A stretch of DNA of 64,000 bases from a bacterium (GTDB lineage: Bacteria > Actinomycetota > Acidimicrobiia > Spongiisociales > ZC4RG35): NCBI GenBank assembly GCA_028824015.1, contig JAPPFC010000055.1:40506-104505 (forward strand). The letters run 5' to 3'. The notes below the pieces were generated by a model. The model saw only the letters and a program-made list of their open reading frames with translations, had not been told where the DNA came from and did no database searches. The position numbers and the translations under genes were made by a program. Positions 15,610 to 41,305 of the stretch are shown in pieces (positions within the stretch are counted from its first letter, which is position 1; the number at the start of each line of letters is the position of its first letter).

Positions 15610-16722
15610 ATGGCAGTTTCTCCCCTTCAGGCTCTGGCATTGGCCGGACAGAGCATCTGGGCCGACCAGATCTCCAGGTCCATGCTGGACAGCGGGGAAC
15701 TGGCCCGCCGGGTCAGCCGGCAGCACATAACCGGGGTCACCTCCAATCCCTCCATCTTCGCGGCGGCGATCACGAAGAGCACCGACTACGACGCCGAGAT
15801 GGCGCGCCTGATTCGGGAAGGCTTGGATCCCGACGAGACCTACGCGGAACTCATCACCCGCGACATCGTGGATGGCTGCGACGTCCTCAAAACCGTGCAC
15901 AGAGAGAGCGGCGGTACGGATGGCTTTGTTTCGGTGGAGGTGTCACCCGAACTGGCGGCGGACACTCCCGCCACCATCGCCGAAGCCCGGGAGTGGGTGA
16001 AGCGGGTGAGCCGTCCCAACCTGCTGGTGAAGGTGCCCGCGACACCCGAGGGGATCCCGGCCATTCGCCGGTTGACCGGAGAGGGGATCTCGGTGAACGT
16101 AACCCTGATCTTCTCGCTCCAGCGATACCGGGAGGTGATGGACGCATACCTCAGTGGCTTGGAGGACTATTCCGCGGTGGGAGGAAACCTGCGGGAGGTG
16201 GCGTCGGTGGCGTCGTTCTTCGTGTCGAGGGTCGACACCGAGGTGGACGGCCGATTGGAGGAGGCCGGCGGCGCCGAAGCGCTGGCTCTTCGGGGAAGGG
16301 CCGCGATTGCCAACGCCCAAGCCGCCTACGGGGACTTTCTCTCGGCTTTCTCCGGCAGCCGGTGGGACCGCCTGGCAGCACAGGGAGCACGCATACAACG
16401 GCCGCTGTGGGCTTCCACATCCACCAAGAACCCGGCTTATCCGGACACCTTGTACGTTGATACCCTGGTCTCACCCCACACGGTCAACACCTTGCCGTTG
16501 TCCACCATCGAGGCCTATGCGGATCATGGCTCTCCTCGCCCCTCCATCTTCGGGCCCGAAGAGATCGCCCTTGCCCGGAACCTCCTGGAAAAACTGGAGA
16601 GCGTCGGAATCGACTACCAGGACGTGGTGGAGACCCTGGAGGCCGAGGGCGTCCAGAAGTTCGCCGAATCGTTCAGAGAACTGCAGAGCCACATCGAGGC
16701 AAAATACGCCGAGCTCTCCTGA
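15610..16722 (+). CDS. tal: Transaldolase (actinobacterial long form)
   Basis: [23 protein letters not shown]..., with [11 protein letters not shown] and the Schiff-base lysine region (LLVKVPAT). About 370 aa. The track ORF starts 32 codons upstream. Confidence 0.85.
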
Positions 16723-16772
16723 CGCGGCAACCGTCGGCACGGAGTGCACACCCGGGTGATCTTCACCCCGTC

Positions 16773-18830
16773 TTACTCGGAGACCTCCACGGCCAGGGTG
16801 TAGGAACCCTCCCCGTAACCCGACACCTCAACATAGAAGTCCCCTGTCAACGGCGCCCGCCACTCGACACGAGACGCCAGGGAACCCTCATAGTCGTCAT
16901 CCCAGGCCCACTCGAATCCATCGGAGTCATAGACCGCGAGTACCGAGTCGGAGAGGGTGCCCAATGTCACGGCTATCTCATACAAGGTGCCCTCCAAGGC
17001 TCCGAACACGAAAACGTCCACATCATCGGGATAGTCCAGCACCCCCGCCGCCGACCTCCCCACTTCCACCGCGGTGGCGCCCTCCGACAGGTTCGAGTGG
17101 TCGTCCGTGATGTCGGACTCCCGGACCGTCAGGGTGTAGGAACCCTCCCCATAGCCCGACACCTCGACATAGAGGTCCCCGCTGACCGGTGCCCTAAACA
17201 CCAGGCGAGACGCAAACGAACCCTCTCCGCGGTCATCATTAGAACCCAACCACACCCCATCGGCGTCATAAACGGCCACCGCCGAGTCGGAGAGAGAACC
17301 CAACTCCACATCCACCTCATACAACACATCCTCAGCAGCCCCGAACACGAAGACGTCCACATCATCGGCGTACTCCAACACCCCTTCCACAGACTCCCCC
17401 AACGCCGCCTCGGTTGCGCCATCCACCCCATCGGCATAGTCATCGACGATGTCGGAGACCACTACCGCCAACATGTACGAACCCTCCCCATAACCCGACA
17501 CCTCCACAAAGAAGTCCCCGGACTGCGGCGCCCTCCACGCCAATCCAGACCCCAAATCCTCATCGCCCCGGTCATCGTTCCACGCCACCTCCCAACCGTG
17601 GGAATCCACCACCGCCACCACCGAATCCGAGAGCGTCCCCAGGTCCACATCCACCTCGTACACCTCCCCCTCCACCGCCTCGAACACGAAATAGTCCACA
17701 TCCCCCTCGTAATCCAACACGCCCTCCACAGATTCGCCCAACACCATCTCGGAGGCCCCATCCACCCCATCCCCATGGTCATCCTCCACATCGAGCGCAA
17801 CAACCCTCAGCGTGTAGGAGCCCGTCGAACCGAAGCCTCCACCGAAACCCGACACCTCAACGTAGAAATCCCCGGTCATCGACGCCCTCCATACCAGCCG
17901 CGACCCGTAGGAATCGTCCCCCCGGTCATCGTTGTAGTCGAGCTGAAACCCGTCGGCGTCGGCAATCGCCACCACCGAATCGCCAAGAGTCCCCAGGTCG
18001 ACCTCCACCTCGTACACCTCGCCCTCCACCGCCTCGAACACGAAGTAGTCCACGTCTCCCTCGTTCTCCAAGACCCCCTCAGCAGCCTCTCCCACCACCA
18101 ACCGAACCGCGCTCGCCGCGCCATCTGCAAAGTCGTCCGGCCCTCCGACGCCGGCATCGAACAGTTCGGGTAGGCACCTCAGCAAACCAGCCATCATCTC
18201 AAAGAGTTGAGCCGCGTCTTCCGCCTGGGCGGCTTCGTCGGAAGCACCGGAATCCGAAGTCAATACGGCGATGAGGGCGGTCACGTCCATCTCGTCAACG
18301 ACCTCCCGCAAACAGTCTTCCTGCTCTTCGCCCACCTGGATTCCGTCGTCCTCCATTCCGAACGCCATGCCGGCCAGAAACACGGCTCTGACTACCTGGG
18401 GAGGGAGGCATGGGAGTAACGCCAATTGTGGCTGGCTCAATTGATCCTCATCCAGGATCCCCTGCCGCAAGACCCTGTCCAGCTCCGTTCCAGCCGCGTC
18501 GCTGACGCAAGCCTGCTCGGCGGGAGTCAGAGCGTCGAACACATCTCTCCAAACCGTGTCGCGGTCGATGTCCAAACCCTCAATGCCAATCGGAGCCTCA
18601 GGCACAGTGGTCGGTGGGCTGGTGGTGGTCGGTGGCTGTGGCGTGGTGGTGGTCGGCGAGGCCGTGGTGATCGGCGGCTGGGTTGCGGTGGTGGTCGATT
18701 GCAGGGTCGTGGAGGAAGGTTCCGCAGCGGGCTTCTCCTCGTCACCGCAAGCCAGGAGCAACATCGCTGCCGCCAACCACAGCAACGCCACCCTTGGAGG
18801 GCGGTGGCTGAATGACGGACAACTCCACAT
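16773..18830 (-). CDS. Secreted lipoprotein with five tandem pre-peptidase C-terminal (PPC)-like repeat domains
   Basis: Signal peptide plus lipobox (LLLACG), then a Thr/Pro-rich linker and a Cys-containing acidic region. Five ~95-aa repeats follow, each with GDVDYFVFEAVEGEVYEVDVDLGTLSDSVVAV...NDDRG...GDFYVEVSGYGEGSYTL. Confidence 0.7.
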   Translation of the reverse strand: MWSCPSFSHRPPRVALLWLAAAMLLLACGDEEKPAAEPSSTTLQSTTTATQPPITTASPTTTTPQPPTTTSPPTTVPEAPIGIEGLDIDRDTVWRDVFDALTPAEQACVSDAAGTELDRVLRQGILDEDQLSQPQLALLPCLPPQVVRAVFLAGMAFGMEDDGIQVGEEQEDCLREVVDEMDVTALIAVLTSDSGASDEAAQAEDAAQLFEMMAGLLRCLPELFDAGVGGPDDFADGAASAVRLVVGEAAEGVLENEGDVDYFVFEAVEGEVYEVEVDLGTLGDSVVAIADADGFQLDYNDDRGDDSYGSRLVWRASMTGDFYVEVSGFGGGFGSTGSYTLRVVALDVEDDHGDGVDGASEMVLGESVEGVLDYEGDVDYFVFEAVEGEVYEVDVDLGTLSDSVVAVVDSHGWEVAWNDDRGDEDLGSGLAWRAPQSGDFFVEVSGYGEGSYMLAVVVSDIVDDYADGVDGATEAALGESVEGVLEYADDVDVFVFGAAEDVLYEVDVELGSLSDSAVAVYDADGVWLGSNDDRGEGSFASRLVFRAPVSGDLYVEVSGYGEGSYTLTVRESDITDDHSNLSEGATAVEVGRSAAGVLDYPDDVDVFVFGALEGTLYEIAVTLGTLSDSVLAVYDSDGFEWAWDDDYEGSLASRVEWRAPLTGDFYVEVSGYGEGSYTLAVEVSE

Positions 18831-19081
18831 GTCAAACGGATCCGGGGGGTGGTTGGCTGCTTTCCCACTCTAGTTTGCGACGGCTCCCAACCCTGTCACG
18901 GGTGTCCAACGCCGCCCGCGGGCATCACACCCTGGCTACACCTGCTGGAACAGTGAAATCGTTAACAGGTGATTCTCCTCACAATTCCGACATACCCTGT
19001 TTCCACCATGCCGGTGGTGTTCTCAATCGCCAGGACCGGACGGGAGTCCCTCCCTGTTCTGATCGGTTCGAACACGGTCCT

Positions 19082-21325
19082 CTATCCGAAACGGGAGGCC
19101 GCATCGGGCCCGAATCCCTCCATCTTCTCCACCGCGGAGAGCATCAGTTCCCGCTGAGCCTTCAGACTGGGAAAGAAGATGGTGGCCGAGGCGCGGGCGC
19201 CGTGGCCGGAGATGGTCAGCACCCTTCCGACTCCCAGGGTCGAGTGGCGGACCCGATCTCCCACCTCGACCCCCGACTGACTCACGATCTTCCTGAACGA
19301 CCGCCCTCGGCCGGCCAGAGAGCGAGACTGCCCCCCGGGAGATCCCCGTCGCCCCCCTTTTCCGGAGCGGGAAGAATCGCGGCCTCCGACACGAACCACA
19401 AGTCGCTCGGGGATCTCTCGCAAGAAGCGGCTGGGGACCTGCGGATACGGATACCCCCCCACCATGCGGGTGTCGTCCCAACTGAGGTGAAGCCTCTCCA
19501 TGGAGCGGGTGATCGCCACGTAGAAGAGGCGCCGCTCCTCCTCCAGTTGGTCCGGTTCGGAGATGCTGCGCTCGTGAGGGAACAGCCCATCCTGCATGCC
19601 CACCACGAACACCACCGGGAACTCCAGGCCCTTGGCGCTGTGGACCGTCATCAAGGCCACCGCACCAGCGCCCTCATCGAGATTGTCGGGATCCGACACC
19701 AGCGAGGCTCCCTCCAGGAATCGACCGAGTTGCTCCAACGGCGCCAGGTCCTCCTCGAGGTTGGATTCAAACTCGTACGCCACCCGGGAGAGTTCAGCCA
19801 GATTGTCAGAGCGACTCTCCGCCTCTATGCCCCCCTCGGCGGTGGCCATCTCCGCCATTCCCGTATCGAAAATGGCGCTTTCCGCAGCTCGCCCCACCCC
19901 ATCGGATTCAAGATGTCCCTTGATCGCGGCCAACACATCCGCCAGTTGCTGCACCCCCTTACGAGCCCGGGTCGATATCCCGGGGATCTCATCGGCCCTT
20001 TCCAAACCCTCCCGCAGGCTCACCTCCTCGGTTGAGACGAAACGCTCCAGGTGACCCAGCGAGGTCCGCCCGATTCCCCTCCGAGGAGTGTTGATGATTC
20101 TCCGCAGCGCCACCCCGTCGTCGGGGTTGGCCACCACCTGCAGATAGGCCACCACATCCTTGACCTCCCGGCGTTGGTAGAACGCCACCGCTCCCACCAC
20201 CTGGTATGGCACCTTGGACCGCCGTAGCGTCTCTTCGAAGGCGCGTGACTGTGCGTTGGTCCGGTAAAACACCGCCATGTCTCCCGGGTTGTAGCCCTCC
20301 GCCAACAGTTCACGTGCCCGGTTGGACACGAATCGAGCCTCACGGACCGCCCCCGCCCCCTGATGGACGACGATCTGTTCCCCATCGTGCTGATCACACC
20401 ACAGGTCCTTGGGGTCGGAGCGCAGATTGGCGCTTATGACCTCGTTGGCGGCATCGAGGATGGTGGAGGTCGACCGGTAGTTGCGGTTGAGTATCACCCG
20501 GCGGGCTTCGGGAAAATCTTCGTCGAAACGCTCGAAGTTCCGATAGTCGGCCCCTCGAAAGGCATAGATCGACTGATCGCTGTCCCCCACCACGAACAAG
20601 CTCCTGTGAAGCTTCGCCAGTTCCCGGACCAGCAGATACTGGGCCTGATTGGTGTCCTGGTATTCGTCAACCAGCACGTGACCGAAGATGCCCTGGTACT
20701 TGTTCAGCACCTCGGGAACCGCGCCGAACAATTCCACGGTCACCATGAGCAGATCGTCGAAGTCCATGGCCGACATCTGGAGAAGGCGCTGCTGGTAGAG
20801 CCTGTAGACCTCCGCCACCTCGACGGGGACCTCTGTCCGGTCCAGGAAGGTCTCGTAGTCCACCAGACTGTTCTTGGCTTCGCTGATCTTGTTCAAGAGT
20901 CCCCGGGGGGAGAGTCGACTGGCGTCCAAACCCAAGTCGTTGAGACAGTTTCTCACGAGACGCACCGAGTCGGAACGGTCGTATATCGAGAAGTTCGACC
21001 GGTATCCGAAGGCATGCGCCTCGCGACGCAGGATGCGGGCGCACGCCGAGTGAAAAGTGGAAACCCACATTTCGTTCACCGTCGCCCCCAGGAGTCCCCC
21101 AACCCTCTCTCGCATCTCGCGGGCGGCCTTGTTGGTGAAGGTGATGGCCAGGATGGAGTGGGGTCTGACTCCCATCTCCCTGATCAGATAGGCTATGCGA
21201 TGAGTCAGGACCCGGGTCTTGCCCGATCCGGCTCCCGCCACCACCATCACCGGACCCCCCGCAATGGTCACCGCGCCCTTCTGCTCGGGATTCAAGTCCT
21301 CCAGGAGCGGGTGGGCACCGATCAT
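19082..21325 (-). CDS. pcrA: ATP-dependent DNA helicase PcrA/UvrD (superfamily 1)
   Basis: Walker A AGAGSGKTRVLTHRIAYLI, with helicase motifs throughout. The start MIGAHPLLEDLNPEQ at 21325 abuts the guaA stop. The track ORF extends to 21400. Confidence 0.9.
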   Translation of the reverse strand: MIGAHPLLEDLNPEQKGAVTIAGGPVMVVAGAGSGKTRVLTHRIAYLIREMGVRPHSILAITFTNKAAREMRERVGGLLGATVNEMWVSTFHSACARILRREAHAFGYRSNFSIYDRSDSVRLVRNCLNDLGLDASRLSPRGLLNKISEAKNSLVDYETFLDRTEVPVEVAEVYRLYQQRLLQMSAMDFDDLLMVTVELFGAVPEVLNKYQGIFGHVLVDEYQDTNQAQYLLVRELAKLHRSLFVVGDSDQSIYAFRGADYRNFERFDEDFPEARRVILNRNYRSTSTILDAANEVISANLRSDPKDLWCDQHDGEQIVVHQGAGAVREARFVSNRARELLAEGYNPGDMAVFYRTNAQSRAFEETLRRSKVPYQVVGAVAFYQRREVKDVVAYLQVVANPDDGVALRRIINTPRRGIGRTSLGHLERFVSTEEVSLREGLERADEIPGISTRARKGVQQLADVLAAIKGHLESDGVGRAAESAIFDTGMAEMATAEGGIEAESRSDNLAELSRVAYEFESNLEEDLAPLEQLGRFLEGASLVSDPDNLDEGAGAVALMTVHSAKGLEFPVVFVVGMQDGLFPHERSISEPDQLEEERRLFYVAITRSMERLHLSWDDTRMVGGYPYPQVPSRFLREIPERLVVRVGGRDSSRSGKGGRRGSPGGQSRSLAGRGRSFRKIVSQSGVEVGDRVRHSTLGVGRVLTISGHGARASATIFFPSLKAQRELMLSAVEKMEGFGPDAASRFG

Positions 21326-34254: not shown

Positions 34255-36183
34255 CTAGGCGGAGATTTGGGAAAGCACCCGCTCGGCCACGGCCTCGGCT
34301 ACGAAGCCGAACTCTCGGGCCAGTACCTCATAGGGCGCCGAGGCGCCGAAACTGTCAATCCCGATCGCTAGCCCTTCGGCCCCCACCATTCTCTCCCACC
34401 CGAAAGTGGCGCCGGCCTCCACGGAGACCCTCGGAATGCCCGCCCCCAGCACCTCTCGCCGATAGGAGGAGTCCTGCTCTGCGAACGCTTCCCAGCAGGT
34501 AAGGCTGACCACCCGCGCCGAGATCCCGCGGCTCTCCAGGAGGTCGGCGGCTTCCAGCGCCAGAGACACCTCCGACCCGCCGGCGATCAGGACCACGTCT
34601 TCCCCGGGACGCAGCATGTACCCGCCCCGGGCGGCCCCGCCTCGCGCCCGGGAGCGATCCAGAACCGGGAGGTTCTGGCGGCTGAGGACCAGGACCGTGG
34701 GCCCATCGGTGCGATTGAGGGCCATCTCCCAAGCCTCCACGGTCTCGGTGGCGTCGGCCGGACGGATCACCCACAGGCCGGGCATGGCTCGAAGCCCGGC
34801 GAGGTGCTCGACGGGTTGGTGAGTGGGACCGTCCTCTCCCAACATGATGGAGTCGTGAGTCATCACCCATATACAGGGGAGTTCCATCAAAGCGGACAGC
34901 CGGATGGAGGGCCGCATGTAGTCGGTGAACACGAAAAAGGTGGAACCGTAGGGACGGACCCCTCCATGCAGCGCCATCCCGTTCACTATCCCTCCCATCC
35001 CGTGCTCCCTTACCCCGAAGTGAATGTTCCGACCGGTGCGGGCCGAACGGGAAAAGCCCGGATCGCCGGGCAGCACCGTTTTGGTGGACTCCGCCAGGTC
35101 GGCCGCGCCTCCGATGAATCCCGGGACCTTCTCCCCGATCTGGCCGAAGAGCTTCCCCGATGCCGAACGGGTGGCGATGCTATCTCCGGGCTCGAATCCC
35201 GGAGACTCCAGTTGCACCGGCCGGTGGGCATGGAGAACTCGCCACTCTGCGCTACGTTCCCGGCTCTCCCAGTCTCGGCGCGCCGCCCTTCCCCGCTCCA
35301 TAGCCTCCGACATGAAGTCGTAGACCTCCGGCGGCGCCCAGAAGTCCTCCTCCGGCGGGATACCGATGTTCATCTTGGCCAGTCTCACTTCCGCTGCTCC
35401 GAGCGGCGCCCCGTGGGCGCCGGGGGTGTCCACCTTGTTGGGGGAACCGTGAGCGATATGGGTACGGCAGATGACCAGGGACGGCTGGTCCCCGGCGTCA
35501 AGAGCCTCCCGGGTGGCTTCCGCCACCGCCGACCGGTCGTGGCCGTCCACCGAGACGGTGTGCCATCCCAACGAGCGGAACCGCGCCCCGACGTCCTCGG
35601 AGAACGTGATCTCCGTTCCGCCGTCGATGGAGATGCGGTTGTCGTCGTAGAAGTAGATCAACCTCCCCAGGCCCAGATGTCCGGCCAGGGAAGCCGCCTC
35701 GGCTGCCACGCCCTCCATCAGGTCTCCGTCGGACACGAACCCGTAGGTGTGGTGATCGACCTGGTCGGCGCCCAGCCGCGCCCGGAGATGCTCCTCGGCG
35801 ATGGCCATTCCCACCCCGTTGGCGAAGCCCTGGCCGAGGGGACCGGTGGTTGTCTCGATTCCCAGCGCCGGTTCTCTCTCGGGGTGACCGGCCGTGGGAT
35901 AACCCCACTGGCGGAAATTCTTCAAGTCCTCCATGGTGACCGGGAACCCGCACAGATGCAACATGGCGTAGAGCAGCATCGAGCCGTGCCCGTTGGAGAG
36001 CACGAAGCGATCCCGATCGGCCCAGGTGGGACATCCCGGGTCCACCCTCATAAAGCGGGTCCAGAGGGTCACGGCGATGTCTGCCATGCCCATGGGCATC
36101 CCCGGATGGCCGGAGTTGGCTCGCTGGACGGCGTCCATGGCCAGTCCCTTGACAACCGCTACGGCGAGTTCTTCATTCCTCAT
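34255..36183 (-). CDS. tkt: Transketolase
   Basis: AMDAVQRANSGHPGMPMGMADIA, the TPP-binding GDGDLMEG-like motif and the C-terminal domain. The start is probably MRNEELAVAV at 36183. The track ORF extends to 36282. Confidence 0.9.
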   Translation of the reverse strand: MRNEELAVAVVKGLAMDAVQRANSGHPGMPMGMADIAVTLWTRFMRVDPGCPTWADRDRFVLSNGHGSMLLYAMLHLCGFPVTMEDLKNFRQWGYPTAGHPEREPALGIETTTGPLGQGFANGVGMAIAEEHLRARLGADQVDHHTYGFVSDGDLMEGVAAEAASLAGHLGLGRLIYFYDDNRISIDGGTEITFSEDVGARFRSLGWHTVSVDGHDRSAVAEATREALDAGDQPSLVICRTHIAHGSPNKVDTPGAHGAPLGAAEVRLAKMNIGIPPEEDFWAPPEVYDFMSEAMERGRAARRDWESRERSAEWRVLHAHRPVQLESPGFEPGDSIATRSASGKLFGQIGEKVPGFIGGAADLAESTKTVLPGDPGFSRSARTGRNIHFGVREHGMGGIVNGMALHGGVRPYGSTFFVFTDYMRPSIRLSALMELPCIWVMTHDSIMLGEDGPTHQPVEHLAGLRAMPGLWVIRPADATETVEAWEMALNRTDGPTVLVLSRQNLPVLDRSRARGGAARGGYMLRPGEDVVLIAGGSEVSLALEAADLLESRGISARVVSLTCWEAFAEQDSSYRREVLGAGIPRVSVEAGATFGWERMVGAEGLAIGIDSFGASAPYEVLAREFGFVAEAVAERVLSQISA

Positions 36184-39100
36184 CACCGAACATACGGTAC
36201 CAAGACGTCTCGGTGACCCTGCCATCGGCGGCGATACCCTGAGTGCGCTGCCAATACTTGGTGTCCGCCACGGTGTTCTCATCGAACACGCCCGTCACCT
36301 CGATCCCCAGCGCTCCCTGCCACTTCTCCACCAACGCACCCCTGTCGCCCTCTTCGATGACCACCGAGGAGGGCCGGGTGGTGGAACTCCCCGCGGAGGA
36401 CGAGCCGCCCGGCACGCTCGCTCCCGGGAACATCTTGACCCATGAGTTGACGCCTACTATCCCGTCGACCTCGAGGCCGTTGGCGCGCTGCCACTCCCGG
36501 GTGGCCCGGGCGGTCTGGGAGCCGAAGTGCCCGTCGGCGGGGATCCCCAATGCCCGCTGCCAGATAATCACATGCGTCCCCCGGGACCCGGTCCGCAGAG
36601 GCCGGCCCGGGTAGGGCGGAGCTTCTCCATCGAAGTCGTTATCCCCCGGATCCGGCGAAGATGTCTCCGTCGCTTCGGCCCCGGGGAACATCTTGAGCCA
36701 GGAACTGACTCCCACCACACCGTCTGCGGTGAGACCGTTGCGGTACTGCCAAGCCTTGGTCGCCGACAGGGTGGCCGAACCGAAATACCCATCGGCCTGT
36801 ATGCCCAGGGCGCGTTGCCAGATAATGACACTTGAACCGCTGTCCCCCATTTCAAGGGGTCGGCCCGGGTAGGGGGGGACGCCAGGTGTGGTACCCGTGC
36901 TTCCCGATCCCTGGCTGTCGTCACCCTCCTTGTCGGGGGGAGGTTCCGGCGCCTCCACCCCCGCGCCGGGGAACATGGTTTGCCAGCTTTGCATGCCCAC
37001 CACACCGTCAACCGTCAGGCCGTTGGCCTGCTGCCACTCCCGGGTGGCCTGGGCCGTGCCGGTTCCGAAGTACCCGTCGGCCGCAACCCCCAGTGCGGAC
37101 TGCCAGGTCCGCACCCACTTCCCTCGGCTGCCCAGTCGCAGGACGAAGCCGGGGTAGCTGGGAGCCTGGGGATCGGTTGCCTCCGGTTGAGGCGCCTCTT
37201 CAGGGTCAGGCTCGGTCTCGGTCTCCGGATCAGGCTCCGGTTGGGGAGGGGCGGGTTGGGAGAACATCCTGTCCCAGGATTGGCTCCCGACTATTCCGTC
37301 GGGAGCCAGACCATTGGCCTGCTGCCACTCCCGGGTGGCGGCGGTGGTGGCCGGTCCGAAATCTCCATCGGCGGTGACGCCCAACGCCTCCTGCCACAGT
37401 CGCACATCGCTCCCCCGGCTCCCCTCGCGCAGCGGCTGGCCGGGATAGGGGTGCTCGATGATCAGCGCGCTGGGAGGGGTGGGTTCAGAGGGAGGACTCG
37501 AACCTATCTGGTTGCCGGCAGTGACCGTGAAGCTGTACGCCACCCCTGCTTGAAGACCGCTGATGACCGCGGTGGTCTGGGACGCCGCCACCGTGACCGG
37601 ATCGGAATGGGCCGGATCGACGCTGACCGTGTAGCGCTCGGGCGCAAAGCGGGAGGAAACCGGGCTCCAACTCACCGTCGCCACGCGCCCCCCGCTGACC
37701 GTCACGCCGGTGGGAGCGGGCGGCGGCGCCCACCAGTCCGCCAGGTAGTCGATCGTGAAGTACCGGGACCGAAGGCGGAGTGCGGACCTCAGCGTCGGAG
37801 CCGAAACCCTTTCGGTGACTCTGTCGCCTCCCCGGATCCCGGCGATGTTGAGAAACTGGGCGCTCCCCCACGGATAGGAAACCGTGTCAACCGAGATTAC
37901 GTCGTCGAATCGATCGGACAACTCATAGATGTCGAGCAGTTGGGACAGAGAGAGGGTCTTTGCCCAGAAGGCGTTGGGATTGACGGCGGGATCGATCGAC
38001 CAAGGATCCTGGACCGAGACCAGGTAAGGCCGCCCCGCCGTCCCCCAGATCGTCGAGGAGTCCTCGGTCGCCCCTCCACTGGAGGACGAGTAGAAAGCCT
38101 GAACCACTCCTACGGATTCCTCGGGATGGGTCAGCACTCTTCCCGCGGTGGCCCGGGCTCCCACCAGTTCCCAGCGGCCCCCGTTCTGTATCTCCCTGTT
38201 CCAACCTCCATATACCTGGTCACGGGCGTCGCTGACCACATGACACCAGCAGGCCGACTTGCGGGAACTGCTCAGGGAAGGCTCCGCTCCCCGCCGAAGC
38301 ATTGCATATATCGCGTACGATCGGGCTGCGATGGCCTGGGCCTCCAACGCGGCGTCCGGCCAGGTGGGAGGGATCTCCGCTATGCCTGCCACGTAGTCCT
38401 CGATGTCCATCTCCATCGAGAAGTGGATCCTCCCTCCGCTGGGACGGACCCGCACATTGCCGTGGATGAACTGTGTCATCTCTCCCCCGTAGTTGAGGCC
38501 TCTCAGGCCCACCCGGTTGGAGTGGGAGAGATCCTGGATGCTCAGCCGGCATCCCGCGGCCACCCCCAGCGGTGCGGCGGTACAGGATCCGTCCCCCGCC
38601 GCGGTCACCACCAGGTCCTCTCCCGCATCGAGGTAGTAGGCCCCGGCGCAGTCGGGCAAGCCGCTTCCCGCCACCAGCGCCTGCCAGGTTTGGCTCCCCA
38701 CCGTCCCGTCAGCGCCCAGGCCCTGGGACGTCTGGAAGGAGACCACCGCATCCTTTACCGCTTGGTTGAAGGAACCGGGCGTCTCCTGCAGGTACCCCCG
38801 TTCCACCAACCTGCTGATCAAGAGATCGGTGAAGGTGTTGTCACGTCCGGGAGTCGTCCCTTCGGCCAGCACCGGATAGGAGGAATACTCCCCGTCGAAG
38901 CAGACCCTCACCCGGCCGGTTACCACCGCGAAGGTCAACTCCGACCGGTTTTGCCTTATCCCCACCCAGATGGGCAGTGGTTCGGTGATCACCCAAGAAC
39001 CGGGTACTGCGTCGGCAAGATTCTCGACGGATGAGCCCTGGTAGAAGTGCTGAAGAATCTGGGTGGCGGTGTAACCCTCCTCCGCCATGCCCTTGGCGCC

Positions 39101-39496
39101 GTACTGGGTGAGACCCACTCCATGCCCATGTCCGGACCCCTCGATAATCAACTGCACCCTGTCCGGGCTGGTGGTCGCGGTGCCCGACCCGGGAAACATC
39201 GCCCGCCAGGAAGCGGCGCCCACTATCCCATCCGCCTCCAAGCCACGCTCGTTCTGCCAGGCGATAGTGGCTGCTTCGGTTTGTCGGCCGAACACCCCGT
39301 CAGCCGGAATCCCGAGAGCCTCCTGCCAGATCCTGACCGACTCGCCGCGGCTGCCCAGCCGCAGGGGCTCCCCCGGGTAATCGGCCGCCGCGACCGGAAC
39401 GACCGTTCCCAGTAGCAAGATCATCGCGGCCAGAAACGCCGCCACCCGCTTGGACGAGTGTCGTCCCATTGAATTCCTGATGCCTTCCAAGGTCAA
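36173..39496 (-). CDS. Large secreted cell-wall protein: N-terminal signal peptide, SpoIID/LytB domain, fibronectin-III-like region and about seven peptidoglycan-binding (PG_binding_1) repeats
   Basis: 1107 aa. Repeated units have the form GSRG..V..WQ.ALG...DG.FG..T..AT..WQ...GL..DG.VG..SW. A SpoIID/LytB-like core is present (YLVSVQDPWS...HSNRVGLRGLNYGGEM). Signal peptide AAFLAAMILLLGTVVPVAAA. The reverse-strand repeated ORFs in the track are artefacts of these repeats. Confidence 0.7.
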   Translation of the reverse strand: MTLEGIRNSMGRHSSKRVAAFLAAMILLLGTVVPVAAADYPGEPLRLGSRGESVRIWQEALGIPADGVFGRQTEAATIAWQNERGLEADGIVGAASWRAMFPGSGTATTSPDRVQLIIEGSGHGHGVGLTQYGAKGMAEEGYTATQILQHFYQGSSVENLADAVPGSWVITEPLPIWVGIRQNRSELTFAVVTGRVRVCFDGEYSSYPVLAEGTTPGRDNTFTDLLISRLVERGYLQETPGSFNQAVKDAVVSFQTSQGLGADGTVGSQTWQALVAGSGLPDCAGAYYLDAGEDLVVTAAGDGSCTAAPLGVAAGCRLSIQDLSHSNRVGLRGLNYGGEMTQFIHGNVRVRPSGGRIHFSMEMDIEDYVAGIAEIPPTWPDAALEAQAIAARSYAIYAMLRRGAEPSLSSSRKSACWCHVVSDARDQVYGGWNREIQNGGRWELVGARATAGRVLTHPEESVGVVQAFYSSSSGGATEDSSTIWGTAGRPYLVSVQDPWSIDPAVNPNAFWAKTLSLSQLLDIYELSDRFDDVISVDTVSYPWGSAQFLNIAGIRGGDRVTERVSAPTLRSALRLRSRYFTIDYLADWWAPPPAPTGVTVSGGRVATVSWSPVSSRFAPERYTVSVDPAHSDPVTVAASQTTAVISGLQAGVAYSFTVTAGNQIGSSPPSEPTPPSALIIEHPYPGQPLREGSRGSDVRLWQEALGVTADGDFGPATTAATREWQQANGLAPDGIVGSQSWDRMFSQPAPPQPEPDPETETEPDPEEAPQPEATDPQAPSYPGFVLRLGSRGKWVRTWQSALGVAADGYFGTGTAQATREWQQANGLTVDGVVGMQSWQTMFPGAGVEAPEPPPDKEGDDSQGSGSTGTTPGVPPYPGRPLEMGDSGSSVIIWQRALGIQADGYFGSATLSATKAWQYRNGLTADGVVGVSSWLKMFPGAEATETSSPDPGDNDFDGEAPPYPGRPLRTGSRGTHVIIWQRALGIPADGHFGSQTARATREWQRANGLEVDGIVGVNSWVKMFPGASVPGGSSSAGSSTTRPSSVVIEEGDRGALVEKWQGALGIEVTGVFDENTVADTKYWQRTQGIAADGRVTETSWYRMFGDEE

Positions 39497-39568: not shown

Positions 39569-41305
39569 CTAAATGTACGACCTGGCCACCGGTCGGCGGC
39601 CGATCACCACCGGAGTCCTCCCCGGTGACTGAGGGGTGGCTGCCTGCTTGGAACTCTTGGCGTGATAACTGGAGCGCACCAGCGGCCCCGATTCCACATG
39701 CGGGATGCCCAAAGCCTCGCCGTAGGAGCGGTATTCCTGGAACTCGTCGGGGTGAACGTAGCGATGCACGGGTCGGTGGCGGGGGCTGGGACGCAGATAT
39801 TGGCCGATCGTGACAATGTCCACTCCCACCGCCCGCAGGTCGGCCAGCGCCCCCAGCACCTCGTCGCGGGTCTCGCCCATCCCCACTATCAGCCCCGATT
39901 TGACGAGTCCCTCGGCATAGAGCCGCTTGGCTCGGGCCAGGAGCGCCAACGAGCGCCCGTAGTTGGCGGAGGTGCGGATCTCCCGCTGCAGCCTGACGAC
40001 GGTCTCGGTGTTGTGATTGAGCACGTCGGGACGCTCGGCCATCACCGTCTCCAGTGCTTCCGGATCACCCTTGAAGTCGGGAATCAGCACCTCGATGTCG
40101 GTGTGGGGGGACCGGGCGCGGGTCTCCCTGATGGTGGCGGCAAAGACCGCCGAGCCGCCATCTGGCAGGTCGTCACGGTTCACGGAGGTGATCACCGCGT
40201 GGTTCAGGCCCATCCGATGGATCGCCTCGGCCGCCCGGTGGGGCTCCTCGAGGTCTAGCCCCAGGGGCCGGGCGGTCGTCACGTTGCAGAACCCGCAGGC
40301 GCGGGTGCAACGGTCGCCCAGAATCATCAGGGTGGCGGTCCCCATCCCCCAGCACTCGTAGATGTTGGGACATCCCGCCTCTTCGCAAACCGTATTGAGG
40401 TCCAGGGATCGCATCAGTTTCTTCAGTTCCAGGTACTCGGCGTCCATCCGGGCCGTCACCCGCATCCAGGGGGGACGCTCCGGCTCGCCCGGCAGCCTCC
40501 GGGTTCTCCCCGAGAGGCTCACCGCCACGCGGTCGGGTGAAAAGGTTCCCTCCCTGAGCAACCTGTCCACCTCGAAGTCTCTGTCCCGTCCCTGACCCCG
40601 GACAAAAGCTGCCATCTGCGTCTCCATCGTGGTCTTTCCGAATGTCTCGGCGAAACGCGGCACAAAGGCTTCCACCGCCTCCTCGAGCGATACACGCCGA
40701 CCCACCAGTTCGCTCACGGAAGTAACCGGGCGATCGGTGATCCCACAGGGGTTTATGTGCCCGAAATACTCCATGCTGGGGTGCAGGTTGAGAGCGAAGC
40801 CGTGCATCGACACCCGCCGGGAGACCCGTACGCCGATGGCCGCCACCTTTCCGCCCCGGGTCCACACCCCGGTGAGCCCGGGTTCGGGCCAGGCTTCTAC
40901 TCCCAGATCGGAGAGGGTTGCCACCAACGCCTGTTCCAGGGAGCGCACGTAGTCGGTTATCCGGGAGGGTTTAACGGCGATGAGCGGATACCCGACCAGT
41001 TGGCCGGGGCCGTGATAGGTAACGTCCCCTCCCCGGTCGACCCGGAAGAACTCCGCTCCCACCTCCGAGAGCCGGTCGGGGCCGATCAGAAGATGAGAGC
41101 CGTCCCCTCTTCGTCCCACCGTGTAAACGTGGGGATGTTCCAGCAACAACAGGTAGTCGTCCGCTATGGCCCCTCCGGCCCGGCGCTCCCAGATGGCTCG
41201 CTGGAGGTCCCAGGCCTCTGCATAAGGAAGCCGCCCCAGCCATCGCACGCGAAGGGTGGGGCTCACCCCGGGGGGGGTCACCTCAATTCCTGCTCCCAGT
41301 CCCAT
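39569..41305 (-). CDS. Fused octanoyltransferase LipB - lipoyl synthase LipA (single 578-aa reading frame)
   Basis: The N-terminal 230 aa are LipB (PHVYTVGRRG, GGDVTYHGPGQLVGYPL, KVAAIGVR). The C-terminal 320 aa are LipA (PPWMRV..., the CEEAGCPNIYEC auxiliary cluster, and the CTRACGFC radical-SAM cluster). The frame is continuous. GTG at 41281 overlaps the E2 stop as GTGA and is an alternative start. Confidence 0.8.
   Translation of the reverse strand: MGLGAGIEVTPPGVSPTLRVRWLGRLPYAEAWDLQRAIWERRAGGAIADDYLLLLEHPHVYTVGRRGDGSHLLIGPDRLSEVGAEFFRVDRGGDVTYHGPGQLVGYPLIAVKPSRITDYVRSLEQALVATLSDLGVEAWPEPGLTGVWTRGGKVAAIGVRVSRRVSMHGFALNLHPSMEYFGHINPCGITDRPVTSVSELVGRRVSLEEAVEAFVPRFAETFGKTTMETQMAAFVRGQGRDRDFEVDRLLREGTFSPDRVAVSLSGRTRRLPGEPERPPWMRVTARMDAEYLELKKLMRSLDLNTVCEEAGCPNIYECWGMGTATLMILGDRCTRACGFCNVTTARPLGLDLEEPHRAAEAIHRMGLNHAVITSVNRDDLPDGGSAVFAATIRETRARSPHTDIEVLIPDFKGDPEALETVMAERPDVLNHNTETVVRLQREIRTSANYGRSLALLARAKRLYAEGLVKSGLIVGMGETRDEVLGALADLRAVGVDIVTIGQYLRPSPRHRPVHRYVHPDEFQEYRSYGEALGIPHVESGPLVRSSYHAKSSKQAATPQSPGRTPVVIGRRPVARSYI

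Follow-up and report, generated by a model that had tools for sequence, protein, structure and literature searches.

Pre-peptidase C-terminal (PPC) domains have been studied almost solely as appendages of secreted proteases, and the locus described here raises the question of what such domains do when they form the body of a protein that contains no enzyme. The gene occupies positions 16773 to 18830, on the minus strand, of a 64-kb stretch of contig JAPPFC010000055.1 (hereafter the window, 64,000 nucleotides in all), whose host is probably an uncultured, sponge-associated marine bacterium of the Acidimicrobiia. It is a complete open reading frame (ORF) of 685 amino acids (aa) and a stop codon, and an earlier note on this DNA had seen in it a lipoprotein built from tandem PPC-like repeats. 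In its product, units resembling the collagen-binding domains (CBDs) of clostridial collagenases make up the body of an enzyme-free protein that is predicted to be tethered to the membrane and belongs to a sizeable, fast-evolving family of uncultured marine Acidimicrobiia and Chloroflexota. We read the product as a non-catalytic, acidic, lipid-anchored scaffold, stiffened by Ca2+, that would bind or display in a multivalent fashion, and we give this reading roughly even credence.

PPC units, their fold, and their putative Ca2+ site

Both motifs on which the repeats had been recognized are present in four copies each, DVD[YV]FVF at aa 259, 377, 490, and 603 and GD[FL][YF]VEVSG[YF]G at aa 320, 438, 551, and 663. 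The array consists of four repeats with a period of 118, 113, and 113 aa (354, 339, and 339 nt), rather than of five repeats of ~95 aa and ~285 bp as the earlier note had it. Nor are the units highly similar, being 53–64% identical to one another as protein and 62–71% as codon-aligned DNA. Tandem Repeats Finder, applied to positions 16000–19500, misses them because they are too diverged, and reports only short repeats in the stalk described below. With unit 2 as the query, tblastn against the 64-kb window recovers the other three units at E values of 1e-26 to 3e-37 and no paralog elsewhere in the window, the best other match (E 0.04) falling in the SpoIID/peptidoglycan-binding ORF at 36173–39496.

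Each unit, all of them encoded on the minus strand, opens with a linker of the form D-[IV]-x-D-D-[HYF]-x-[DN], which reads PDDFAD in unit 1. This unit (aa 227–344, 17799..18152) is a beta-sandwich in the structural model, carries a 5-aa insertion (GGGFGST) before its last strand, and is 92–94% identical to unit 1 of the orthologs P0002 and P0004. Unit 2 (aa 345–457, 17460..17798, linker DVEDDHGD) is delimited by the repeat alignment, the model, and the ortholog units; unit 3 (aa 458–570, 17121..17459, linker DIVDDYAD) by Pfam, the repeat alignment, and the ortholog units; and unit 4 (aa 571–682, 16785..17120, linker DITDDHSN) by the repeat alignment and the ortholog units. The C-terminus comes directly after the last PPC strand, with three residues (VSE) following unit 4. 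Together, the repeats account for about two thirds of the mature protein and not, as had been thought, for essentially all of it.

The assignment of these repeats to the PPC beta-sandwich, already made in the earlier note, holds in three comparisons: (i) the Pfam PPC family (PF04151) matches four stretches at 44.9 bits (gathering score, 25.9), its full-length profile matching within unit 3 at aa 490–559, the best stretch, and scores of homologs reach 111 bits; (ii) a profile of 38 units, searched against the whole PDB, has significant matches only to collagenase CBDs (E 5.8e-10 to 1.9e-4, with the next match at E 0.24), namely 5iku (ColG s3a-s3b, 5.8e-10), 3jqw (ColH s3, 1.4e-8), 5sv5, 4hpk, and 1nqd, and with the whole protein as the query, the ColH CBD is likewise the closest solved structure by sequence; and (iii) an AlphaFold2 model of aa 78–685 (mean pLDDT 84.7) has four beta-sandwiches with pLDDT ~90 behind a helical N-terminal domain, and Foldseek, run on this model against the PDB, ranks the Ca2+-bound ColG tandem CBD 5iku first (E 5e-13) and tandem CUB-domain proteins next. 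Neither Pfam nor NCBIfam reveals a peptidase or any other catalytic domain; that a protease domain is missing had been noted before. A remnant of a protease pro-domain was considered and rejected, since no peptidase lies nearby.

Collagenase CBDs are a subclass of the PPC superfamily (PMC4356367, PMC6168687), and the closest characterized counterparts of the window units are those of Hathewaya (Clostridium) histolytica, ColG s3a/s3b and ColH s3 (5iku, 1nqd, 3jqw), with which they share the beta-sandwich, detectable homology, tandem arrangement, and the nature of a non-catalytic module. The ColG CBDs need Ca2+ for collagen binding, and Ca2+ turns the s3a-s3b linker from helix to strand (PMC6168687, PMC4356367); in ColH, Tyr962 is a residue of the collagen pocket (PMC4356367). 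Unlike the collagenases, the window protein has neither a collagenase nor a PKD-like domain, carries four units, and is predicted to be lipid-anchored instead of forming part of a secreted enzyme. With the PPC family at large it shares the domain size, the motifs DxDxY/F ... G.Y.L, and its four Pfam copies. In classical PPC proteins, however, one or two copies stand C-terminal to a peptidase and are often removed on maturation (PMC3236237, PMC3327674), whereas here the copies are the body of the protein and there is no peptidase. This peptidase context, to which the family owes its name, is not demanded by Pfam. A C-terminal PPC fragment of FibA ("Protein C") occurs in the extracellular matrix and spore cuticula of Myxococcus xanthus (PMC3236237), and PPC modules occur in the cellulosomal scaffoldins ScaO and ScaP (PMC5590126). 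In these cases, as would be true of the window protein, PPC is a structural or anchoring part of an extracellular layer and not an active protease (PMC3236237, PMC5590126), but FibA and ScaO/ScaP are peptidase-derived or peptidase-containing and lack the lipobox, the Thr/Pro stalk, and the two-Cys helical modules described in the next section.

The mature protein is as acidic as the earlier note had claimed, with 21.9% Asp plus Glu, 3.3% Lys plus Arg (a single Lys), a pI of ~4, and a net charge of ~−122 across 658 residues; in the 12 other ORFs of the window, Asp plus Glu amounts to 7–15%. Across 38 diverse units, D6 of the linker, D33 and D35 of DxDxF, and G106 and Y108 of GSYTL are invariant. 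In the CBDs, an acidic N-terminal linker and an aspartate pair of the first strand (DxD in ColH s3, DxxD in ColG s3b) form a Ca2+ site by which the linker between domains is stiffened, and the window units may have a counterpart of this arrangement. The Ca2+ ligands of ColG, reportedly Glu899, Glu901, Asn903, Asp904, Asp927, and Asp930 (Wilson et al. 2003), and its collagen-binding tyrosines, Tyr970, Tyr994, and Tyr996, were placed on the 5iku chain with an offset of 768, at which the numbering is self-consistent (Ser922, Arg929, Tyr994, and Tyr996 meet the expected letters). When the units are aligned with ColG s3b by HMMER, D35 pairs with Asp930 and D/N10 with Asp904, D7 reaches Glu901 only by ungapped extension of the local alignment, and D6 and D33 are invariant but one position off the ColG Ca2+ ligands. 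The Ca2+ site is plausibly kept, and the alignment of invariant acidic residues with that of ColG favors the earlier proposal of a cation- or surface-binding scaffold rather than an enzyme, which stays plausible.

Acidity of this degree might also be the function itself, in that the protein could buffer or concentrate Ca2+ or other cations in bulk at the cell surface, much as acidic proteins of the calsequestrin type do, and so serve, for example, wall stability or mineral nucleation. The net charge and the conservation of the acidic motifs would suit such a cation sink. The acidic residues, however, are part of a defined fold and stand at positions typical of structural Ca2+ sites, not in low-complexity acidic runs, and neither the gene neighborhood nor the domains fused to such arrays suggest mineralization. 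Seawater contains ~10 mM Ca2+, so scavenging would be unnecessary, and we regard this explanation as very unlikely.

The homology to CBDs invites a more specific proposal, that sponge collagen or spongin is the ligand of the PPC units, recognized as collagen is by the clostridial CBDs, and that the symbiont is anchored in the mesohyl in this way. Among solved structures, only collagen-binding domains are related to the units in sequence, and the top fold match is the ColG tandem CBD; a PPC segment of the Grimontia collagenase also binds collagen (PMC6168687); the DNA probably comes from a sponge metagenome; and the Actinobacteriota of sponges are reported to have few eukaryote-like repeat proteins and to need other ways of associating with a host (PMC8163846). 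Yet the pocket itself has changed: the position of Tyr996 is aromatic (the Y/F of SG[YF]G), Tyr994 is replaced by Ser, and Tyr970 by the first Asp of NDD, the conserved acidic loop of the window units that occupies the position of the ColG pocket. The units are, moreover, extremely acidic, far more so than the CBDs. The sponge provenance, too, is no more than probable, and the sole relative in a collection of species-representative genomes comes from one Dehalococcoidia metagenome-assembled genome (MAG). A matrix adhesin of the clostridial kind is therefore a possibility that we consider unlikely.

Lipobox, stalk, and helical base

The N-terminus, MWSCPSFSHRPPRVALLWLAAAMLLLAC followed by GDEEKP, consists of a positively charged n-region, a hydrophobic core, and the lipobox LLAC with Cys28. 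The signal peptide (aa 1–27, 18750..18830, minus strand), with the n-region HRPPR and the hydrophobic stretch ALLWLAAAMLLLA, is kept in the homologs P0002, P0005, and P0007 and in a frame upstream of the gene call in the orthologous segment L009. Its lipobox, L-L-A-C at aa 25–28 (18747..18758, minus strand), matches the lipoprotein pattern [LVI][ASTVI][GAS]C, which makes Cys28 the predicted lipidated residue 1 of the mature protein, and an equivalent x-x-[AGS]-C is found in most homologs with an intact N-terminus; NCBIfam gives only sub-threshold lipoprotein signal-peptide matches. A Thr/Pro-rich stalk of ~50 aa follows (aa 29–77, 18600..18746, minus strand), seen in the sequence, by Tandem Repeats Finder, and as repeat family D3, so that the lipobox and stalk of the earlier note both stand. 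The stalk is encoded in part by imperfect tandem repeats of 18, 21, and 42 nt at 18607–18697 (71–83% matches). A Thr/Pro- or Pro-rich stretch is found at the equivalent position in the homologs that were read, and since its length varies among them, the segment 18607–18697 may vary in length too.

Neither an SLH domain nor a sortase signal nor another wall-anchoring module is found in Pfam or NCBIfam, and an S-layer protein with an SLH anchor was rejected for want of an SLH match. The nearest named relatives of the GuaA protein encoded nearby (69–72% identity) are all from Acidimicrobiia or Actinomycetota, and the G+C content is 61–68%. This lineage, together with the SpoIID wall protein of the window, leads us to expect a single-membrane envelope, in which the lipoprotein would be attached to the cytoplasmic membrane and face outward. 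The wall protein in question, a 1107-aa ORF at window 36173–39496 (minus strand), comprises SpoIID, fn3, six PG_binding_1 domains, and a PG_binding_3 domain and is a large peptidoglycan-binding or remodeling protein.

These N-terminal features are missing from the public NCBI product (MDE0231749.1 / MDE0602544.1), which is 600 aa long and starts at Leu86, 85 codons late. The stretch left out, window 18576–18830 (aa 1–85), encodes the signal peptide, the lipobox, and the Thr/Pro stalk, and from this start the protein would be mispredicted as cytoplasmic. The long form of 685 aa has the support of P0002, P0005, P0007, and the upstream frame of L009, all of which retain these three features. In L009 itself, at ~2790–3030, the gene call P0004 (604 aa) is truncated, with the signal peptide and stalk lying upstream in another frame. 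The frameshift there is near a DIDR motif; it may be an error of long-read assembly (10x contig), or the gene may really be disrupted.

Such irregularities could be taken to mean that the gene is an artefact, a collapsed or chimeric assembly of repeats or a decaying pseudogene, particularly as the sequence was assembled from a metagenome, the NCBI product has only 600 aa, and the L009 ortholog is frameshifted. The 685-aa product is, however, identical in three independent assemblies from different runs (ENA ROBB21-1 SAMN13943213 and SAMN13943214, and Logan SRR10996927), which excludes the collapsed repeat array that the earlier note had named as a reason for doubt. Short reads can resolve units that differ by 29–38% in DNA, every unit has a positional ortholog at 90–94% identity, and the shorter NCBI product amounts to another choice of start codon. 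The full-length ortholog P0002 is also 685 aa long and 85% identical. Against its orthologs, the gene has a dN/dS of 0.26–0.43, below 0.5 throughout, and is under moderate purifying selection; the flanking pcrA and sucC have values of 0.05–0.18, and the higher range is typical of a fast-evolving yet constrained surface protein. We thus assign an artefact a probability close to nil.

Between the stalk and the PPC array, where the earlier note had placed a short Cys-containing acidic region, lies a folded helical domain of ~150 aa (aa 78–226, window 18153–18599) with four cysteines at positions 108, 141, 173, and 219. Modeled alone by AlphaFold, it is all-helical (pLDDT 84, pTM 0.76). It comprises a lead-in with helical module A (aa 78–162, 18345..18599, minus strand; Cys108 and Cys141), recognized from the AlphaFold model and hhalign, and helical module B (aa 163–226, 18153..18344, minus strand; Cys173 and Cys219), with the motifs EEQExCLRE ... 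LLRCLPELF. The two modules are homologous (hhalign probability 93%, E 2.7e-7), each ~65–70 aa long with two Cys apiece, and the Cys columns of the module are nearly invariant. No family covers it in Pfam or NCBIfam, including Pfam searches with the N-terminal domain alone and with homologs rich in the module, and no fold relative was found in the PDB.

The module is nevertheless widespread. A HMMER scan of 1.84 billion representative proteins yields 260 clusters at E ≤ 1e-3, 101 of them at E ≤ 1e-10, many with multiple copies of the module, and look-ups of clusters with such proteins return almost no names. The N-terminal regions of homologs mostly contain 4, 6, 8, or 10 Cys, equivalent to two to five modules, and the predominance of even counts (odd counts occur in some) fits extracytoplasmic disulfides, which the modules are accordingly predicted to contain. 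Among 110 module-bearing proteins, the partner domains include PPC (28), PQQ-type beta-propellers (9), LRR (3), RCC1 (2), and one each of Peripla_BP_6, Trypsin_2, and META. We regard the two-Cys helical module as a candidate new domain family; no element of the protein is less understood or more novel than this module and its combination with PPC arrays into what may be a modular mast on the cell surface.

Family and variation between strains

We found 134 homologs, all of them metagenomic or from MAGs; those that bear a name are labeled Acidimicrobiia, Acidimicrobiaceae, Actinomycetia, Chloroflexi, or just "bacterium." A number of them have the annotation "PPC domain-containing protein," and entries of this kind from Acidimicrobiia and Chloroflexota MAGs (MDE0132377.1, MCQ3802693.1) are true homologs or orthologs with the same architecture that carry the name only. 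The window protein is thus a well-supported member of a recognizable class, to which annotation pipelines have already given the PPC label; searches linking PPC with sponges, symbionts, and lipoproteins found no literature on PPC-array lipoproteins or on the helical module, and no function, structure, or description of the annotated entries. Close orthologs share the neighborhood IMPDH, guaA, pcrA, lipoprotein gene, transaldolase, B12-binding domain, and sucCD, and pcrA and the transaldolase gene are the direct neighbors in the window. Distant homologs lie in unrelated gene contexts without a conserved partner gene.

Copy number varies in the family, as the earlier note had expected. PPC units number 2–10 per protein, and in close orthologs there are four (the window, P0002, P0004), five (P0005), or six (P0003, presumably also syntenic), with three such variants present together in metagenome ERZ25069412. 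The units of the window protein are 90–94% identical to the same-position units of P0002 and P0004 and at most 64% identical to each other, so they are old and individually conserved. Recent duplications are seen elsewhere, unit pairs of at least 90% identity occurring in 9 of 115 homologs (e.g., P0024, P0058, P0003). In P0002, the terminal unit is of a different type and is no ortholog of window unit 4.

Segments L008 (3001–5058), L005 (6001–8394), and L009 (3001–4815) were compared with window 16773–18830 and its flanks. Against L008, synonymous divergence (dS) is 0.17 in the signal peptide and stalk, 0.06–0.14 in the N-terminal domain and units 1 and 2, 0.29 in unit 3, and 0.77 in unit 4, with 0.48 in the flanking pcrA and 0.30 in sucC; against L005, the gene has a dS of 0.70 and pcrA one of 0.19. 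This mosaic of synonymous divergence points to the exchange of gene segments between co-occurring strains. The locus is thus recombination-prone, as had been suggested, judged by its mosaic dS and the swap of the terminal unit, but the reason then given, a high similarity of the repeats, does not hold for units of such age. That the PPC protein evolves fast is also indicated by a comparison in which GuaA is 94% identical and the PPC proteins 68%, on contigs that appear to carry orthologs and are presumed from their lengths to be paired (274930 for P0008/P0276, 157657 for P0020/P0274).

Some relatives carry a further domain behind or beyond the array. P0106 and P0107 have two helical modules and two PPC units before Peripla_BP_6, P0058 has three PPC units before OpuAC, P0120 has two before SBP_bac_5, and P0088 has two PPC units and two helical modules before a PQQ propeller. 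In these five proteins, the arrays look like a spacer from membrane anchor to head. By extension, helical modules and PPC array could be a pedestal for heads such as solute-binding domains, beta-propellers, or LRRs throughout the family, and the window protein a head-less member that serves in a coat or envelope without a ligand of its own. The variety of C-terminal domains with which the helical module pairs would agree with this, as would the end of the window protein right behind its last PPC strand. Several observations stand against it: (i) most of the 137 family proteins (2–10 units) are head-less and end in the PPC array; (ii) the conservation of the NDD loop and of residues at the surface exceeds what the fold would need; (iii) the exchanged unit is the terminal and most exposed one, an exchange easier to explain if that unit contacts something; and (iv) characterized PPC/CBD domains are binding modules (PMC6168687). 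We hold a pedestal without a ligand to be rather unlikely, albeit a serious contender and the main rival reading.

A proposed scaffold at the cell surface

As a binding or display scaffold, the protein could work as follows. The precursor would be exported by Sec, lipidated at Cys28, and tethered at the outer face of the cytoplasmic membrane. Its Thr/Pro stalk of ~50 residues, possibly O-glycosylated, would cross the wall, and two helical modules, presumably stabilized by disulfides, would form a base from which four PPC beta-sandwiches like those of the collagenase CBDs point outward. The acidic linker D-[IV]-x-D-D-[HYF]-x-[DN] and the invariant DxD of the first strand may chelate Ca2+ as in ColG s3a-s3b, and at the Ca2+ level of seawater this chelation would, we propose, turn the array into a stiff and very acidic rod. 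Such a rod might act as a multivalent, low-affinity binder or display for an extracellular polymer or surface, for example, host matrix or particulate material. The variation in unit number and the exchange of the terminal unit between strains could then tune its reach, avidity, or specificity.

Five points weigh against this account: (i) the pTM of the full model is 0.52, so the orientation of the domains to one another is of low confidence; (ii) the linker matches the ColG Ca2+ ligands only in part, with Ala/Gly/Ser facing Asn903 and a variable position facing Glu899, and the match depends on ungapped extension of a local alignment; (iii) with only one of the three pocket tyrosine positions aromatic, collagen recognition of the ColG type is not supported; (iv) the segment of two helical modules and two PPC units that precedes a solute-binding domain in relatives suggests that the array may be a mere spacer; and (v) the sponge origin, read from the assembly label ROBB21-1 and the style of the locus tags, is no more than probable. 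This label and the early-2020 BioSample numbers agree with the sponge metagenome set described by Robbins et al. 2021 (PRJNA602572; PMC8163846), to which the samples may well belong.

A wider proposal would see lipoproteins with helical modules and PPC arrays as a system for surface display that is specific to sponge-associated lineages of Acidimicrobiia and Chloroflexota. Disulfide-bonded helical modules and Ca2+-stiffened units would form an extensible mast; head-less forms, the window protein among them, would bind host matrix, others would lift solute-binding proteins or beta-propellers beyond the wall, and by exchanging units, strains would become adapted to the host in which they live. 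This might be the "alternative mechanism" of host association inferred by Robbins et al. (PMC8163846) for Actinobacteriota, which lack eukaryote-like repeat proteins, although we offer it as a speculation that we consider unlikely. Should the array prove to bind the matrix of a host, or to carry solute-binding proteins as a mast does, it would have a bearing on the way in which symbionts with a single membrane extend past their own wall and keep their grip on the host.

As for the surroundings of the gene, a scan for a promoter and terminator found none, and there are no Rfam or tRNA features within the 64-kb window. At window 39569–41305 (minus strand), next to the SpoIID-type ORF, a 578-aa ORF combines LplA-B_cat (a LipB-type lipoyl/octanoyl transferase) with lipoyl synthase (LIAS_N, radical SAM) and appears to be a lipB-lipA fusion.

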